Below, in pieces: positions 12,341 through 49,581 of a stretch of DNA of 64,000 nucleotides (position 1 is the stretch's first letter; each line of letters begins with the position of its first letter). This DNA comes from an uncultured Methylomirabilota bacterium (GTDB lineage: Bacteria > Methylomirabilota > Methylomirabilia > Methylomirabilales > 2-02-FULL-66-22): contig OY970067.1 of the NCBI GenBank assembly GCA_963705305.1, positions 864,001-928,000 of the forward strand, written 5' to 3'. Under the pieces are notes generated by a model that had not been told where the DNA came from, searched no databases, and was given only the letters and a program-made list of their open reading frames with translations. A program made the translations under genes and the position numbers.

Positions 12341-12375
12341 GCCTCGTCTCGTGCGCCGGAAATCTCTTGACGTTT

Positions 12376-12483
12376 CGTCACCCCGGCGAACGCCGGGGTC
12401 CAGGAATACGGTCTGACTGGATTCCGGCTTTCGCCGGAATGACGGAACGGCAGCTCTGGATGCCGGCGTTCGCCGGCATGACG
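12376..12483. repeat. Triplet of 28-bp palindromic REP-like repeats (+,-,-)
   Basis: CGTCACCCCGGCGAACGCCGGGGTCCAG (12376-12403), CTGGATTCCGGCTTTCGCCGGAATGACG (12417-12444), CTGGATGCCGGCGTTCGCCGGCATGACG (12456-12483). Confidence 0.9.
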
Positions 12484-12519
12484 CCCCCGCGCAACTGCGG
12501 AAGCGTTGGAGGCATCTGC

Positions 12520-14073
12520 CTAGCGGGCGCCTCCGGCCGCCAGCATGGCGGCCAGCTCCTCGGCCTGTTCCCGCGGCTCGGGCAGCACCGGCCCCGCCAA
12601 AAGCCTGCCCCCCGTGATCCGCTGCCATTCGGCCGGCAGGACCTCGGCGAGCCACGGGCTTCCCCAGAAGGGCAGCCGGACCCCGATCTGCACCGTGAGT
12701 CCCAGCGCGAACAGGCCGACCGCGCTGGCCCAGGTGGCGGCCCGCGAGAATTCCGGGAAGGCCGCGACCGCCGGGGTGCCGCCATTCCTCCGGGGCAGAC
12801 CGAGCAGCAATGTGACCACCTGGGGAAGCTGGAAGGCGGAGCCGAAGGCGACGATCGGCTGGAGCCCGTCCTTCCCGAGTTCTGCGGCAAAGGCGGCCAG
12901 CCGGCCGCCCGTCCGCTTGTCCAGCTCGGCGGCCAGCGCCTCGGCGTGGGCCCCCAGGTCTCCGCCCAGCAGGATCGGGGCCTTCGCCCCCACCGCCGCC
13001 TCCATCAGGGCCAGCGTGCGCTCGAAGAATGTTTGCTTGGCGTTGCTCTCTCCCATCAGGACCGCCACCCCGCGGATCCGGCCCGCCTCCAGCGCGCCCG
13101 CGAGTGCGTGCGCCGGCGGCAGGGCCAGGCTGCCGGCGCCGGCCTGGAGCCGACGCGACGTGGTCCCGTAGAAGGCGTTCTGGGCGTGATGGGCCGCCTG
13201 GTCGATCACCTGGGCGGCCGTCCGGTCGAAGGGCGCTCTCCCGTCCACCAGGAAGGCGGGCACCCCGTACTTCGCCGCCAGCATCTCCAGCCCAGGCCAG
13301 CCAGCGTTGGGGGCGAGGATCAGCGCGTCCACGTTCATCCCTAGCGCCAGCTCCGGCGAACCGTAGTCGGCAGCCGCCAGGGTGAATGGCAGCCGGCCGC
13401 CCCCCTGCATGAACAGGTTGACCTTCCGCCCCTCCGCCCGCAGTCCCGCCTGATCGAAGGCCCGGACGAGTCCCTCGGGGGCCTGCCCGACGATCAAAAG
13501 GTTGATCCCGCCCGGATCGAACGGCAGACCTGCCTCGCTGCGGGCGAGCCCCGCGGCCGCCTGGCACAGCAGGCCGTACTGGATCAGGCCCAGCCGGGCC
13601 AGGTCCTGGAGGGTCTGGACCAGGTAGCCCTTGTGCGAGAAAAAGCCGTTCTGCACCGAGAACAGGTCCGCCTTCCGGACCGGGAGGAGTCCCGCTTTGG
13701 TCAGGCCCTCCGCGGTCGCCGCGGGCAGGGCGGCGGCCAGATCCGGAAGCTCCTGGCCGGCCCCGGCGATTCCCAAAAGCTGCACGGCCCGGGCCGACTC
13801 CAGCACGCCTTCCAGGGTTGCCTGGAAGAGGGTCTCCATGACGATCTGGTCCCGGTCGGCCCCGCAGGTCCCCTGGCTCGGCTCGTCCCCGAAGGGATTG
13901 ATCCGGCACGGCCCCTGGAAGCACTTCCGGCAGCTCAGGCCGTTGCTGGTGAAGGCGCAGAGCGGCAATTGCCGCTCGTAGCGCTCCCAGGAGAGCTGCG
14001 CCCCGAGGTCGTGTGCCGCCAGCAAGAGGGGAGACGTGTCCGCCAGTGCGCTCTTCTTGTGAATTCGATCCAT
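12520..14073 (-). CDS. CooS (Ni-CODH)-like protein lacking C-cluster ligands
   Basis: N-terminal WERYERQLPLCAF...SCRKCFQGPCRINPFG...TCG matches the CooS D/B-cluster region; C-terminal IRGVAVLMG and AAFPE segments follow the CooS layout; only one Cys after the N-terminal cluster region. Alternative start at 14148. Confidence 0.82.
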   Translation of the reverse strand: MDRIHKKSALADTSPLLLAAHDLGAQLSWERYERQLPLCAFTSNGLSCRKCFQGPCRINPFGDEPSQGTCGADRDQIVMETLFQATLEGVLESARAVQLLGIAGAGQELPDLAAALPAATAEGLTKAGLLPVRKADLFSVQNGFFSHKGYLVQTLQDLARLGLIQYGLLCQAAAGLARSEAGLPFDPGGINLLIVGQAPEGLVRAFDQAGLRAEGRKVNLFMQGGGRLPFTLAAADYGSPELALGMNVDALILAPNAGWPGLEMLAAKYGVPAFLVDGRAPFDRTAAQVIDQAAHHAQNAFYGTTSRRLQAGAGSLALPPAHALAGALEAGRIRGVAVLMGESNAKQTFFERTLALMEAAVGAKAPILLGGDLGAHAEALAAELDKRTGGRLAAFAAELGKDGLQPIVAFGSAFQLPQVVTLLLGLPRRNGGTPAVAAFPEFSRAATWASAVGLFALGLTVQIGVRLPFWGSPWLAEVLPAEWQRITGGRLLAGPVLPEPREQAEELAAMLAAGGAR

Positions 14074-37091: not shown

Positions 37092-37763
37092 GTGAAAAAA
37101 GCCCTGCTATCCTGGAGCAGCGGGAAGGACAGCGCCTGGGCGCTGCACCGGCTGCGGGCTCCGGACCTCGAGGTGGTCGGCCTGCTCACCACGCTCAACC
37201 AGGCCTTCGACCGGGTGGCCATGCACGCGGTGCGTCGCAGCCTCCTCGAGGCCCAGGCCGACGCCCTCGCTCTTCCGCTGTGGGCCGTCCCGCTGCCCTG
37301 GCCCTGCTCCAACAGCGAGTACGAGGCCATCATGGAGCGGGTTTGCCGCCGCGCCGTCGGCCAGGGAATCGAGTTCGTGATCTTCGGAGACCTCTACCTC
37401 GCCGATGTGCGCGCCTACCGAGAGCGACAGCTCGAGGGCACCGGCCTGACCCCCCTCTTCCCCCTCTGGGGCATCCCGACCGCGGAGCTCGCGCGGGAAA
37501 TGGTGGCGGGGGGCCTCAAAGCCAAGATCACCTGTCTCGATCCCAAGGTCTTGCCCGCGAGCTTTGCCGGGCGGGACTTCGATGCGAAGCTGCTGGAGGA
37601 GCTGCCGGCGGGAGTGGATCCCTGCGGCGAGCAGGGGGAGTTTCACACCTTCGCCTACGGCGGGCCCATGTTTCGGAAATCCATCCCGGCCGTGAGCGGG
37701 CAGACGCTGGAGCGGGACGGGTTTGTGTTTGCCGATCTGATGCTGGAAGCTCCGCCATCCTGA
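37092..37763 (+). CDS. PP-loop ATP pyrophosphatase, Dph6/MJ0570-like
   Basis: SWSSGKDS, FGDLYL, PLW, DPCGEQGEFHTF. Confidence 0.9.
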   Translation: MKKALLSWSSGKDSAWALHRLRAPDLEVVGLLTTLNQAFDRVAMHAVRRSLLEAQADALALPLWAVPLPWPCSNSEYEAIMERVCRRAVGQGIEFVIFGDLYLADVRAYRERQLEGTGLTPLFPLWGIPTAELAREMVAGGLKAKITCLDPKVLPASFAGRDFDAKLLEELPAGVDPCGEQGEFHTFAYGGPMFRKSIPAVSGQTLERDGFVFADLMLEAPPS

Positions 37764-37772
37764 GGCGGGGAC

Positions 37773-38906
37773 TTACGGGGCGTAGGTCCGGGCCGTCTCG
37801 TACATGGCGCAGATGTTTTCCGGAGAGACGTTGGCCTGGATGTTGTGCACCGCACAGAGGACATAGCCACCGCCGGGACCTAGATCGTCGATCCGCTTCC
37901 GCACCTCGGCCGCGACCTCGCCGGGGGTGCCGAAGGGGAGGACCCGCTGCGTGTCGACGGCCCCCCAGAAGGCGAGGTCCTTGCCGAACTCCCGCTTCAG
38001 GCGCTTCGAATCCATCCCCCTGGCGGACACCTGGACCGGATTCAGGGCGTCCACCCCGATCTCAATGAGATCCGGGATGAGGTGCACCACGCTGCCGCAG
38101 GTGTGATACAGGATCTTGGCCGAGGTGCGCGACTTGACGGTGGCGAAGAGCCGCCGGTGGTGCGGCTTGATCATCTTGCGGTACAGCTCCATGGACATCA
38201 TGGGGCCGTCCTGGAAGGCCATATCGTCCCCATAGAAGCAGATGTCGGCGCGATCCCCCGCGGCCTCCAGCAGGTCGACGGCCATGGCGACCCAGAGGTC
38301 GGCCAGCTTTTCCATCAGCGCCTGGAAGAAAGCGGGATCGGCGATGAGGTCCGAAAACCAGTCCTCGAAGCCCCGCAGGAACTGCGCCTGGTGGACGATG
38401 CCGCCTGGCATGTTCAGGACCACCGCATAGTTCGTCTCGTCGTGCAGCCGCCGGGCCTCTTCGGCCAGGCCCCGGCAGCGGCCCGGATCGTGCGGATCCG
38501 GCCAGGGGTAGCGCTCCAGATCGGCCGGCGTCCGATCTCCCCGCAGCGGAGGACGGCTCAGATCGTAGTACAGGCTTCCGGGCGGGCGGCTGCGCACGAC
38601 CCCCCACTCGTCCTGGTAGGAGCCGTCGGGGAAGGTGATGTCCTGGGACCGGTCCGGCGCGCCCTGGCTAAGGCTTCGTGTGTCGATGTCGAAGCGGCGC
38701 AGCACCTCCTCGCCGGGATGGGCGATGTTGAGCCACTTGCTGAAGATCCGGGGGGGCGCATCGATCCCGAGGTGGCGATGCAAATTCTCGTAGGCCTCCA
38801 CCACCAGCGAGGTGCAGCGGGTGGCGCCCAGATCCAGGGGGACCCGGTCCGGCTCCTGGTGACTGAGGGCCCGCTGCACGCGCTCCCGGTGCGTCATGGT
38901 CGTCAT
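37773..38906 (-). CDS. URO-D/MtaA-CmuA superfamily protein
   Basis: EPDRVPLDLG, DEWG, GDD, LYHTCGS, LNPVQ, GGGYVLCAVHNIQ. Confidence 0.9.
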   Translation of the reverse strand: MTTMTHRERVQRALSHQEPDRVPLDLGATRCTSLVVEAYENLHRHLGIDAPPRIFSKWLNIAHPGEEVLRRFDIDTRSLSQGAPDRSQDITFPDGSYQDEWGVVRSRPPGSLYYDLSRPPLRGDRTPADLERYPWPDPHDPGRCRGLAEEARRLHDETNYAVVLNMPGGIVHQAQFLRGFEDWFSDLIADPAFFQALMEKLADLWVAMAVDLLEAAGDRADICFYGDDMAFQDGPMMSMELYRKMIKPHHRRLFATVKSRTSAKILYHTCGSVVHLIPDLIEIGVDALNPVQVSARGMDSKRLKREFGKDLAFWGAVDTQRVLPFGTPGEVAAEVRKRIDDLGPGGGYVLCAVHNIQANVSPENICAMYETARTYAP

Positions 38907-39038
38907 GGCTCCTCCCGCTCCGTGCTTGACGTGGGCTCACGTCAATGATACCGATTCCACGCCTCGGACGCCATCCCGGCAACCGAGGCGCGGCCGGCCG
39001 GTCCTGAGTGGCGGACAAGTGGGGCGACACGGGGGGCC

Positions 39039-39066
39039 TGTCATTCCGGCGAAAGCCGGAATCCAG
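39039..39066 (+). repeat. REP-like palindrome upstream of the GIY-YIG gene
   Basis: TGTCATTCCGGCGAAAGCCGGAATCCAG. Confidence 0.9.
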
Positions 39067-39093
39067 TGAAGTCCGAGTTCAGACCCTGAGGCT

Positions 39094-39387
39094 ATGCGAT
39101 TGAAGCAGCCTTGCGTGTACTTGCTCGCAAGCCGCCGAAACGGGACGCTATATGTCGGAGTCACCTCGGACTTGGTCAAGCGCGCATGGGAGCACAAAGA
39201 AAACCTTGCCGACGGATTCACCAGACGGTATGGAGTGCACATGTTGGTCTGGTATGAGCTGCATGAGTCCATGGAAGCGGCCATCCAGCGCGAGAAAGCG
39301 ATCAAGGAGTGGAAGCGACGCTGGAAGCTGGAGTCGATCGAGAAGACGAATCCGAGCTGGCGCGACTTGTACACAGACCTATTGTGA
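39094..39387 (+). CDS. Stand-alone GIY-YIG nuclease (UPF0213/YhbQ-like)
   Basis: CVYLLAS...TLYVGVTSDL..R..EH...FT.RY...LVWYE...AIQREK.IK.W.R.WK...NP.W.DL. Confidence 0.93.
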   Translation: MRLKQPCVYLLASRRNGTLYVGVTSDLVKRAWEHKENLADGFTRRYGVHMLVWYELHESMEAAIQREKAIKEWKRRWKLESIEKTNPSWRDLYTDLL

Positions 39388-39391
39388 GGGG

Positions 39392-39686
39392 CTGGATTCC
39401 GGCGTGCACCGGAATGACGGAGGGGAAGGGCTGGCGTGCTGGGCCTTGTCGTCACCCCGGCCCCGGTCCTCATCGGGGGAAATTCCAGCCGCGGTCCAGA
39501 CGGCCTTTCGTCACCCCGGCGGACGCCGGGGTCCAGGATCGGGGCTCAACCGGATTCCGGCTTTCGCCGGAATGACAAGGGGGGACTCTGGATGCCGGCA
39601 TCCGCCGGCATGACGGAGATACGGCAGGATTCTCGGTGAGGGGAGATGGCGGAGGGGGGCTCTGGATATCGGCGAACGCCGGAATG
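39392..39686. repeat. Cluster of six REP-like palindromes downstream of the GIY-YIG gene
   Basis: Units at 39392-39419(-), 39450-39499(+, long-loop variant), 39509-39536(+), 39550-39577(-), 39588-39615(-), 39662-39686(-, degenerate). Confidence 0.88.
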
Positions 39687-39694
39687 GAGGAGTC

Positions 39695-40087
39695 ATGTCC
39701 ACGGTGAAATTCATCGAGTATGCGGAGGCCAGCGCCGAAGTGCGCACCGTCTTCGACGACATCAAGCGGACCCGCAACGTCCCCGACGTGAACAACTTCT
39801 GGAAGGTGCTGGCCAACCACCCGCCCACGCTGCGCCGCACCTGGGAAAGCCTCAAGGAGGTCATGGCGCCCGGGGCCCTCGACCCCCTGGTCAAGGAGAT
39901 GCTCTACCTCGCCGTGAGCGTCGCCCACGGCTGTGAGTACTGCATCGCCTCCCACACGGCCGGGGCGCGCAAGCGGGGCATGACGGACCAGATGCTCGGC
40001 GAGCTGCTGGCCGTGGTCGGCATGGCCAGCGAGACCAATCGCCTGGTCACCGGCCTGCGCGTCCCCGTGGACGAGGCCTTCCGCTGA
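39695..40087 (+). CDS. Carboxymuconolactone decarboxylase/AhpD family protein
   Basis: KEMLYLAVS...GCEYCIASH. Confidence 0.92.
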   Translation: MSTVKFIEYAEASAEVRTVFDDIKRTRNVPDVNNFWKVLANHPPTLRRTWESLKEVMAPGALDPLVKEMLYLAVSVAHGCEYCIASHTAGARKRGMTDQMLGELLAVVGMASETNRLVTGLRVPVDEAFR

Positions 40088-46332: not shown

Positions 46333-47603
46333 GATCGGCGCGGGATACGCTGGTGATGCTCCTGGCCGGCGGCGTGGGCAGCCGGCTCAACATCCTGGCT
46401 TCCGAGCGGGCCAAGCCCGCCGTGCCCTTCGGCGGCGCCTACCGCATCATCGATTTCACCCTGTCCAACGTCATGCACTCCGGGCTGGAGCGCGTCGGGC
46501 TCCTCACGCAGTACCGCCCCCTCTCCCTCATGGACCACGTGCGCGGCGGGGAGCCGTGGGATCTCATCGGACGCGAGCGCGGCGTGAAGATCCTCCCGCC
46601 CCACACCGGCAAGGAGGATTCGGACTGGTACAAGGGGACGGCCGATGCGGTGTACCAGAACCTGGAGTTCATGGACGAGCACCGGCCGGACAAGGTCCTC
46701 ATCCTGTCGGGCGACCATATCTACCGGATGGACTACGAGCGCATGATCGCCGCCCACGAGTCGCGCGGCGCCAACGTCACCATCGCCGCCATGCCGGTCC
46801 CCTGGGAGGACACCCAGCGCTTCGGGGTGATCGCGGCCGACACAACCTCCTGGATCGTCGAGTTCCAGGAGAAGGTGAAGGACGCCAAGAGCAACCTCGC
46901 CTCCATGGGCGTCTACGTGTTCAGCTACGCCGTGCTGGCGGAGGAGCTCCGGAGCGTGGTCGGAACCAGGACGGGCTTCGACTTCGGCAAGGATATCGTG
47001 CCGGGGATGCTGGGCCGGAGGAAGCTGCTCTGCTACCCCTTCAAGGGGTACTGGCGGGACGTGGGGACGATCAAGGCCTACCACGAGGCCAACATGGACT
47101 GCCTGAACGCCGAGAGCGGCCTCGACCTTCGGCGCTGGGAGCTTCGCTCGGCGCCGGAGGTCCAGCGCTCGGGAGACCGGCCCCCCATCCTGCTGGGCCG
47201 CGCCGCCTCGGTGACCCGCTCACTCGTCGCCAAGGGCTGTGTCATCGAAGGCGGCGTGGAAAACAGCGTGATCTTCCCCGGCGTGCGCATCGGCAAGGGG
47301 GCCCGGGTGCGGGATTCGATCATCATGCACGACAGCGCGGTGGGCGACGGCTGCCGGGTCGAGTACGCGGTCATCGACAAACGGTGCGTGTTGGGCCCCG
47401 GGACCATCATCGGCGAGGGCCGCGCCGACGTGGCCAACCGGAAGTTTCCCGGTCACCTCGACTGCGGCATCAGCGTGGTTGGCAAGACCGTCGTGATTCC
47501 CGGCGGCACGATGGTGGGCAAGAACTGCATCATCGCGCCCCGCGTGGACCTGACCGCGCACGGCGCGGTGCGCCTGGAGGACGGGGAAACCGTCGAATCC
47601 TAA
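46329..47603 (+). CDS. glgC: Glucose-1-phosphate adenylyltransferase
   Basis: LAGGVGSRL...RAKPAVPFGG.YRIIDF, FQEK, ASMGVY, DFGKD, YWRDVGT. Confidence 0.92.
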   Translation: MRSARDTLVMLLAGGVGSRLNILASERAKPAVPFGGAYRIIDFTLSNVMHSGLERVGLLTQYRPLSLMDHVRGGEPWDLIGRERGVKILPPHTGKEDSDWYKGTADAVYQNLEFMDEHRPDKVLILSGDHIYRMDYERMIAAHESRGANVTIAAMPVPWEDTQRFGVIAADTTSWIVEFQEKVKDAKSNLASMGVYVFSYAVLAEELRSVVGTRTGFDFGKDIVPGMLGRRKLLCYPFKGYWRDVGTIKAYHEANMDCLNAESGLDLRRWELRSAPEVQRSGDRPPILLGRAASVTRSLVAKGCVIEGGVENSVIFPGVRIGKGARVRDSIIMHDSAVGDGCRVEYAVIDKRCVLGPGTIIGEGRADVANRKFPGHLDCGISVVGKTVVIPGGTMVGKNCIIAPRVDLTAHGAVRLEDGETVES

Positions 47604-47870
47604 CAGGCTGCCGAAAAAGGCCCATCCGCCGGGTACCCATCTGATGGGTGCCCATCCTTCGGACGGGTACCCCGCGCGCTTGGGCACTCGCTGCGGCGTA
47701 GCGGAAGTACGCCTTGACCCGCCTGCGGCGGGTGCCCCGCCCCGGGTACCCATCCCAAGGGGTGGGTGACGCTGCCTTGCCGTTCGGCTTGCTCACGGCC
47801 CCGAGCGACGTCGAGGGGCATCTGGACCTTTTTGAGCAGCCTGGGCGAAAGCGGGTTTTTCAACCTCCTG
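47604..47870 (+). mobile_element. MITE copy 3 (expanded) with CTAA target duplication
   Basis: CTAA|CAGGCTGCCGAAAAAGGCCCATC...CATCTGGACCTTTTTGAGCAGCCTG...TTTTTCAACCTCCTG|CTAA. Confidence 0.85.
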
Positions 47871-47897
47871 CTAAGGGCTGCACTCCAGCGGAATCTC

Positions 47898-47965
47898 CGT
47901 CATTCCGGCGAAAGCCGGAATCCAGAATTTCCCCCCCTGTCGCTCCGGCGAACGCCGGGCCCGGG
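47898..47965 (+). repeat. REP-like palindrome plus a degenerate copy
   Basis: CGTCATTCCGGCGAAAGCCGGAATCCAG at 47898-47925; TGTCGCTCCGGCGAACGCCGG from about 47938. Confidence 0.85.
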
Positions 47966-49484: not shown

Positions 49485-49581
49485 GTCACCCCGGCAGTCA
49501 TTCCGGCGAAAGCGGGGGCCGGAACTACATATCGGCACCTCGATGTCATCTTCCGTCATTCCGGCGAAAGCCGGAATCCAG
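49485..49581 (+). repeat. REP-like palindromes between the fumarase subunit genes
   Basis: Partial copies at 49485-49512 and full CGTCATTCCGGCGAAAGCCGGAATCCAG at 49554-49581. Confidence 0.85.

Follow-up and report, generated by a model that had tools for sequence, protein, structure and literature searches.

A putative Ssn-type GIY-YIG nuclease gene framed by SRM hairpin repeats in an uncultured Methylomirabilota bacterium

In Neisseria, approximately half of the dRS3 palindromes form the core of a 28-nt oriented motif, NTS, and in many bacteria motifs of the NTS type flank one gene, ssnA (Chenal et al., Nat Commun 2025; PMC11893778). SsnA of Neisseria meningitidis is a 94-aa protein with a single GIY-YIG domain (CDD cd10448); it binds the motif only as single-stranded DNA (ssDNA), cuts the strand a few nucleotides upstream in an orientation-dependent manner, and is inactive on duplex DNA, RNA, and the reverse strand (PMC11893778). 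Each of four assayed Ssn homologues cleaves beside its own motif, and mutagenesis showed that the three nucleotides before the palindrome are most important for cutting and the C just after it for binding; N. meningitidis carries more than 400 motif copies (PMC11893778). Here we analyzed a 64,000-nt stretch of DNA from an uncultured Methylomirabilota bacterium (hereafter, the window; contig OY970067.1, positions 864,001–928,000), in which a small GIY-YIG gene lies between inverted hairpin repeats. On homology, from which its mechanism is also deduced, this locus is very probably an Ssn-type system, namely a stand-alone GIY-YIG endonuclease of 95–97 aa with cognate hairpin sites of the published SRM type.

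The ssn-type open reading frame (ORF) at 39094–39387 (+) encodes 97 aa from an ATG or 95 aa from a TTG at 39100. PF01541 (GIY-YIG) was its sole domain (E 1.5e-16, residues 6–79); approximately 18 residues remain between this domain and the C-terminus, with no added DNA-binding domain. Y9, Y20, G22, R30, H34, E67, and N86 were invariant in a 20-sequence alignment, and we take their catalytic roles to be those generally known for the GIY-YIG superfamily. Since the homologues listed were mostly 94–96 aa with alignments beginning at residue 3, and GAGG is found 8 nt ahead of the TTG, the TTG at 39100 may be the true start of the gene rather than the ATG at 39094. The protein showed 63% identity over 93 aa, without gaps, with a 94-aa ORF of Neisseria gonorrhoeae (BLASTP E 8e-47; tblastn E 7e-35); the criterion for SsnA homology in the published study was tblastn E < 1e-10 (PMC11893778). 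The gonococcal ORF was obtained by tblastn of a plasmid collection, in PLSDB records NZ_CP119140.1 and NZ_CP119142.1 (L251; 2.17 Mb each), and sits among nine exact NTS copies within ±1.5 kb. Supplementary data 4 of the same study includes cd10448 homologues in Candidatus Methylomirabilis limnetica and Nitrosomonas communis (PMC11893778), and an N. communis locus encodes a protein 76% identical to that of the window.

We also observed that both gonococcal records are filed as plasmids and are probably chromosomes; their gene tables are nearly empty, and the ssn-like ORF is unannotated. A free-standing GIY-YIG homing endonuclease of the I-TevI/Seg type was ruled out as a candidate, because the protein has no C-terminal DNA-binding region and its TIGR01453 match of 19 bits is below the cut-off of 56. 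A search of a phage collection with the nuclease gave no match at E 1e-10, and the PDB search gave only a distant UPF0213 match (E 0.0022).

The repeats themselves match the published motif. The SRM search sequence HGTCWYN(0-2)YYVSBRHN(0-5)WNVSBRGN(0-2)RNCYNB (PMC11893778) found nine sites in the window and none in the reversed control, and the nine include the two copies that frame the gene, 39039–39066 (+) and 39392–39419 (−). The commonest copy differs from the NTS consensus by one compensatory stem swap, C:G to G:C. The window copies do not match the exact NTS consensus (strict motif CGTCATTCCCGCGMAVGCGGGAATCYRG), as their stem is CCGGCG...CGCCGG, and because of this single base-pair swap we classified them as SRM rather than NTS. 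The supplements of the published study did not contain the window's exact 27-mer (PMC11893778).

The initial annotation, made from the sequence alone, had described a small GIY-YIG gene, richer in AT than its neighbors, that is preceded at 27 nt by a hairpin repeat and followed at 4 nt by an inverted copy, with five copies beyond, and all of this was recovered. The 27-nt repeat GTCATTCCGGCGAAAGCCGGAATCCAG at 39040–39066 is separated from the ATG by 27 nt. The inverted copy at 39392–39418 begins 4 nt past the stop codon, and the 27-nt arms of the two copies are 89% complementary; same-genus orthologues have a hairpin at the same position after the stop. Three of the five copies located 3′ of the downstream hairpin are intact and two are degenerate. 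Further copies that had been reported at 12.4, 47.9, and 49.5 kb were found at 12377, 12417, 12456, 47899, and 49555. The core YCCGGC-N4-GCCGGR occurred 17 times in the window versus 5.9 ± 2.5 times in shuffled sequences, and 0 of 100 shuffles reached 17. When folded as ssDNA, five copies at the gene form an 8-bp stem with a 4-nt loop, with energies of −7.4 to −10.4 kcal/mol and z from −2.5 to −5.0. The copies in the window are as follows.

39039–39066, + strand: upstream SRM hairpin TGTCATTCCGGCGAAAGCCGGAATCCAG; SRM motif match; ssDNA fold −10.1 kcal/mol, z −5.0.
39392–39419, − strand: downstream inverted SRM hairpin; SRM motif match; fold −7.4 kcal/mol.
~39451–39499, + strand: long degenerate SRM variant with a ACCCCGGC...GCCGCGGT stem and an inserted inner hairpin, read from the sequence; z −1.1.
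39510–39536, + strand: SRM copy of the CC/GG stem type; fold −9.8 kcal/mol.
39550–39577, − strand: SRM copy of the TT/AA stem type; SRM motif match; fold −9.0 kcal/mol.
39588–39614, − strand: SRM copy of the TG/CA stem type; fold −10.4 kcal/mol.
39662–39688, − strand: decayed SRM copy with three mismatches to the pattern; weak fold, z −1.0.
12376–12483: three SRM copies (+CC, −TT, −TG; starts 12377, 12417, and 12456) in a decayed 155-bp element with terminal inverted repeats (TIRs).
47898–47925, + strand: isolated single SRM copy; a second, degenerate core lies at 47944–47959.
49496–49581, + strand: one degenerate and one intact SRM copy (the intact one at 49555) in an intergenic spacer.

The long variant at 39451–39499 folded no better than shuffled sequences (z −1.1). 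Such variants hold a second small hairpin within the loop of the repeat, e.g. ...CCGGCTGGAGTTTA[C/T]CCC..., and they replace the normal copy at some cassette edges, just past the stop at one locus (L252, in contig C38 of genome G006) and before the start at another (L002). The outer end of the decayed copy at 39662–39688 supplies or overlaps the GGAGG ribosome-binding site of a CMD-family gene starting at 39695. In an alignment of CMD upstream regions, related contigs had GGAGG at the same place without a hairpin.

It is improbable that the hairpins act at the RNA level, as terminators or regulators of the nuclease gene and its neighbors, with no relation to DNA cleavage. The window copies examined are all intergenic, and the overlap with the ribosome-binding site is in keeping with such a role. 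However, scans of 38850–39750 gave no T-tract terminator, promoter, or Rfam match, the copies occur in both orientations relative to the flanking genes, and SsnA is inactive on RNA (PMC11893778), a result with which a secondary effect on transcripts would still be compatible.

To examine the repeats beyond the window, we used a strict 27-nt pattern that fixes 5′ GTCA and 3′ TCCAG and leaves two stem positions on each side without a pairing rule. In G000, the 5.65-Mb genome containing the window (G-numbers denote genomes and L-numbers the loci or contigs compared), this pattern gave 31 copies versus 0 for the reversed control. The repeats form 17 clusters, the largest of which is the one at the nuclease gene, where the initial annotation had placed the densest cluster. 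The stem positions left free by the pattern were Watson–Crick paired in all 26 exact copies, the pairs being CC/GG in 10 copies, TT/AA in 8, TG/CA in 7, and TA/TA in 1. Selection acts on the structure of the hairpin. The constancy of the GTCA and TCCAG flanks is not a result, because the search pattern fixed them; the stem covariation fits the published mutagenesis of SsnA, in which flank nucleotides matter most (PMC11893778).

We then compared the gene and its repeats across other genomes. Scoring of 8,000 candidate proteins identified more than 7,900 relatives at E 0.001 or better, and the best 120 were 74–92% identical and named from several phyla. At 80 named genome loci with homologues 67–87% identical, belonging to Nitrospirae, Chloroflexota, Elusimicrobia, Gemmatimonadales, Binatia, and alpha-, beta-, gamma-, and delta-proteobacteria, a correctly oriented SRM was found within 120 nt of the gene on at least one side at 51 loci and on both sides at 19, compared with 0 of 80 in the reversed control. 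Homologues of 45% identity in two same-order genomes carry a different and longer repeat, GTCATTGCGAG...GCAATC, and in one of these cases (L006) repeats of the GTCATTGCGAG type lie within 200 nt of the gene. Protein and repeat thus change together, at a coarse scale. In G000, three other small GIY-YIG genes, found as weaker matches, had no SRM-type repeat nearby.

Within the genus, close orthologues were found in 4 of 21 genomes (G000, G004, G006 with two copies, and G017), each at a different place. All five close orthologue loci were framed alike, two of them with the long hairpin variant on one side. The strict repeats and the gene were distributed as follows.

G000, 31 strict repeats; G004, 19; G006, 82; G017, 28: close orthologue found.
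G007, 32 strict repeats; G002, 21: close orthologue not found; fragmented assemblies of 290 and 570 contigs, respectively.
Remaining 15 genus genomes, 0–3 strict repeats each: close orthologue not found.

The gene was therefore present in 4 of the 6 repeat-rich genomes (19–82 repeats) versus 0 of the 15 repeat-poor ones (0–3 repeats), a co-occurrence that is a tally and not a test because the genomes are kin.

These distributions bear on whether the repeats are ordinary repetitive extragenic palindromes (REPs) made by a RAYT/Y1 transposase encoded elsewhere, with the nuclease gene merely lying in a repeat hot spot. REP-like inverted doublets are indeed present, and G000 has 16 matches to PF01797 (Y1). 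However, none of the 16 is in the window, from which the initial annotation had likewise reported no intact RAYT, and each of the 17 repeat clusters is free of such matches for approximately 40 kb around it. In addition, both at the 51 of the 80 loci and across the genus, the repeat tracks the Ssn gene and not a RAYT, and it matches the SRM/NTS motif, for which the partner enzyme has been shown experimentally (PMC11893778). We regard an origin from RAYT as highly improbable.

Several observations weigh against assigning the locus to the Ssn system. An NCBIfam search with the nuclease returned no family above its cut-off. The gonococcal ORF is inferred to be the orthologue of the assayed N. meningitidis SsnA because of its length and the surrounding NTS copies. 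In contrast to the strict pattern, the loose SRM search sequence showed no genome-wide enrichment in the GC-rich G000 (70 matches versus 57 in the reversed control). At 29 of the 80 homologue loci no SRM match adjoined the gene; a few of these have too little flanking sequence on one side, and at others the repeat may be a variant not captured by the motif. Finally, G007 and G002 are rich in repeats without a close orthologue, both being fragmented assemblies.

Even with these points, the Ssn reading remains very probable. The initial annotation had likened the core geometry to dRS3 and had supposed that the GIY-YIG protein recognizes or nicks the hairpins; NTS proved to be an extended form of dRS3 (PMC11893778), and homology to the characterized Ssn family supports recognition and nicking by the predicted enzyme. 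It had also presented the locus as a RAYT/REP-like architecture with a different enzyme. As a novel system this does not stand, because the Discussion of the 2025 paper already contains the gene–repeat pairing and the IS-like and REP/RAYT-like analogy, together with a mobility hypothesis (PMC11893778). The system is thus already published, and the locus is a further example rather than a new kind. Among the papers listed in a literature search on GIY-YIG with intergenic or repetitive extragenic palindromes, none dealt with bacterial repeat-flanked small nucleases.

By analogy with SsnA, a repeat exposed as ssDNA would fold into the 8-bp stem with its 4-nt loop. The Ssn enzyme would bind this hairpin in one orientation only, reading the 5′ (C)GTCA and 3′ TCCAG flanks, and would cleave by hydrolysis a few nucleotides to the 5′ side of the motif, leaving duplex DNA and RNA untouched. 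Because the framing hairpins are inverted, on each strand the cuttable site would be at the outward-facing boundary of the cassette. By analogy with Neisseria, the most likely role of the system would be to restrict or modulate recombination at SRM-marked sites when ssDNA is taken up or exposed.

The composition of the gene sets it apart from its surroundings. Its GC content is 55.8% versus 66–68% for the neighbors and 66.1% for the genome, and its GC content at third codon positions is 75.5% versus 86–95% for the neighbors. The neighbors are a URO-D-family gene at 37773–38906 (−) on one side and the CMD-family gene (39695–40087) on the other. A stretch of approximately 1.93 kb (37764–39694), comprising the minus-strand URO-D-family gene, the ssn cassette, and the SRM array, is missing in related metagenome contigs. 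In two of these (L128 and L130), a homologue of the ORF at 37092–37763 lies directly before the CMD gene, with approximately 98 and 268 nt, respectively, between the matched segments. Since these contigs join the same flanking genes without it, the 1.93 kb is extra in this lineage. No strict repeat was found in the 30 loci listed, including L128 and L130. The interval between the URO-D and CMD genes had been singled out in the initial annotation as a place to seek empty sites in relatives; genus comparisons revealed no precise empty site for the cassette alone.

Synteny around the ssn locus is not kept in the genus, as the CMD orthologues of G004, G005, G006, and G010 have different neighbors. 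None of eight URO-D orthologues had a repeat within 1.5 kb (622 nt for L037), and their upstream regions differed; for the flanks of the cassettes L002–L004 no syntenic site was found in G000. Spacers elsewhere in the window also differed between relatives: the 12.4-kb spacer is 238 nt here versus 62 nt, SRM-free, in G004, and the 49.5-kb spacer is approximately 205 nt here versus 64–87 nt, repeat-free, in G004, G006, G010, and G020. The gene and repeats come and go between relatives, and these comparisons do not identify the mover.

We were able to delimit 16 cassettes (15 distinct, the flanks of L098 and L004 being identical). They measure 354–380 bp, end exactly at the inverted hairpins, and have unrelated flanks; no target-site duplication and no conserved target were found among the 16. 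The gene clearly appears to be horizontally mobile as a repeat-bounded block, and the gene with its two hairpins has probably moved between phyla as a unit of 354–380 bp and arrived in G000 recently. In two deltaproteobacterial loci (L068 and L094), the cassette is enclosed by a larger inverted repeat, GCGCTAACTTAAGG ... CCTAAGTTAGCGC, which gives the impression of an insertion in the loop of a second palindromic element.

One explanation, compatible with the Ssn reading, is that the SRM–ssn–SRM cassette is an autonomous selfish element, in which nicks at the outer edges let host replication or repair copy the cassette or gene-less hairpin pairs. This is also how the initial annotation read the locus, and such an element would be a hydrolytic counterpart of REP/RAYT. 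The same hypothesis was raised in the published study (PMC11893778). It agrees with the exact hairpin ends and unrelated flanks of the blocks, with the scatter of 67–87% identical homologues over many phyla, with the presence of the gene in only 4 of 21 genus genomes and each time elsewhere, with a gene GC content 10 points under that of the host, and with the location in a stretch missing from related contigs. On the other hand, there is the lack of any target-site duplication, conserved target, or precise empty site noted above. G000 holds a single copy and the two G006 copies are only 75–89% like the query, so that there is no sign of recent cassette copying. Public contigs (four DNA runs from two studies, in short pieces) contained no joints and no contig spanning the cassette. 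Furthermore, GIY-YIG enzymes hydrolyze DNA, and we know of none that joins it. We therefore consider autonomous copying possible but doubtful.

A second route concerns the dispersed hairpin pairs. Many of them lie in an element of 155–159 bp that is bounded by the TIR TAGTGTAGTGCGTC and its inverted counterpart and encloses two convergent SRMs. Eight copies, distributed over G000, G006, and G009, could be aligned over their full length; TA is found at the left end in seven of the eight, and the flanks fit (C/T)TA...TA(G). G000 has four complete and five partial or decayed copies among its 17 repeat clusters, at least 9 of which carry TIR-element ends or flank sequence. An element copy adjoins the ssn gene in G004. 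The complete copies of G000 and the decayed copy of the window are located as follows.

G000:C1 3431426–3431606: complete element copy.
G000:C1 3612534–3612690: complete element copy.
G000:C1 3786381–3786539: complete element copy.
G000:C1 4447096–4447253: complete element copy.
Window ~12343–12520: decayed element copy; 78% match over G000 876343–876445 (window 12343–12445).

G000 also contains nine identical copies of a 1,174-bp IS630-like insertion sequence (IS) with HTH and DDE_3 domains and the ends TAGTCTAGTGTGTCATAAAT (e.g. G000:C1 2399396–2400573), and this identity suggests recent activity. By hand count, 18 of 20 positions are shared between the end of this IS and the left end, TAGTGTAGTGTGTCATAAGT, of a G006 element. 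The insertion target of IS630 is CTAG, with duplication of TA.

The many dispersed hairpin pairs may accordingly be cargo of a non-autonomous transposon (miniature inverted-repeat transposable element, MITE) of 155–159 bp, moved in trans by an IS630-family transposase. The eight end-to-end copies with TIRs, their TA and CTAG-like flanks, and the resemblance of the ends to the resident nine-copy DDE_3 IS all point this way. However, no empty site that would prove TA duplication was found (for two element copies, none was detected, and synteny held on one side only), and a full-length IS with precisely these ends is absent from G000. Repeat-free genomes such as G020 and G010 likewise contain IS630-family relatives, and no version of the element without SRMs was seen. 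In addition, most G006 pairs match over the SRM part alone, so that the plain hairpin pair may be the older unit. On balance, we give the MITE explanation a little less than an even chance. If the hairpins are cargo of the TIR element, their route of spread is independent of the nuclease.

The two routes could also have acted together, with a selfish SRM–ssn–SRM element of approximately 360 bp crossing phyla and an IS630-type miniature transposon also capturing its sites and sowing them genome-wide. This combination is rather unlikely.

Two other sets of features were noticed beside the Ssn locus. A separate repeat family of approximately 275 nt, represented in the window at 47600–47880 and with inverted ends CAGGCTGCCGAAAAAGGCCCATC ... 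CATCTGGACCTTTTTGAGCAGCCTG, gave 125 BLAST pieces in G000 and has dozens of copies in G005, G006, and G010; copies abut Ssn hairpins at two G000 sites, and in metagenome contig L130 the spacer ahead of the CMD gene is occupied by one such copy. Elsewhere in G000, two small GIY-YIG genes, C1 1351064–1351303 (−) and 1260638–1260841 (−), adjoin a tRNA-3′-end-like sequence, GGTTCGAGTCCTACCCGGGGAGCCA, and a tRNA-Asn gene was called beside the former (L223 254–328). These two genes may be tRNA-associated nuclease cassettes.

The results confirm, in an uncultured GC-rich environmental lineage, the Ssn/SRM pairing known from Neisseria and RefSeq genomes (PMC11893778). They provide a natural enzyme–site pair with an altered stem and several tolerated variants, which is useful for charting Ssn specificity. 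They also provide two leads on cassette movement and hairpin spread, the sharp-ended cassette in a strain-variable stretch and the hairpin pairs in an IS630-like TIR element; hitch-hiking of Ssn sites on the latter may be a new, if modest, lead. If the nuclease does start the copying of the block by outer-edge nicks, the block would represent a mobile element that relies on a hydrolytic GIY-YIG enzyme, which is not known to occur.

Among known systems, the locus resembles the Ssn family in its single-domain GIY-YIG protein of approximately 95 aa, the repeat(+)–gene–repeat(−) layout, and the co-occurrence of gene and repeat, and its repeats resemble the Ssn/NTS motif in their 28-nt form, 5′ CGTCA, 8-bp stem, 4-nt loop, and 3′ TCCAG. 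In contrast to the NTS of Neisseria, the stem is CCGGCG/CGCCGG here and CCCGCG/CGCGGG there, and approximately 31 strict copies are present versus more than 400 in N. meningitidis. The host also differs from that of the Neisseria system, being environmental and Methylomirabilota-like, three or four stem variants accompany one gene, and many pairs lie inside a TIR element. The repeats share with Neisseria dRS3 the ATTCC-N10-GGAAT geometry, but dRS3 is a 20-bp palindrome alone, whereas the repeats here carry oriented NTS/SRM flanks. Mosaic arrays of dRS3 are named NIMEs. As in REP/REPIN–RAYT systems, short intergenic palindromes are often paired as inverted doublets, and a gene for a small enzyme lies between inverted copies of its own repeat; unlike in RAYT (TnpA-REP) systems, the enzyme is a GIY-YIG hydrolase and not an HUH/Y1 transposase, and no Y1 gene is near the repeats. 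To our knowledge, GIY-YIG hydrolases have no covalent intermediate or strand transfer, unlike HUH/Y1 transposases. The protein is also similar to the small UPF0213/YhbQ GIY-YIG proteins (BH0048, PDB 1ZG2) in being a stand-alone domain of approximately 100 aa, these being only distant kin at the PDB match given above. The 155–159-bp element resembles IS630/Tc1-mariner ISs and MITEs in its short TIRs, TA ends, CTAG-like flanks, and IS630-like ends; unlike a typical IS630 MITE, its interior consists of two Ssn hairpins with no remnant of a transposase gene.

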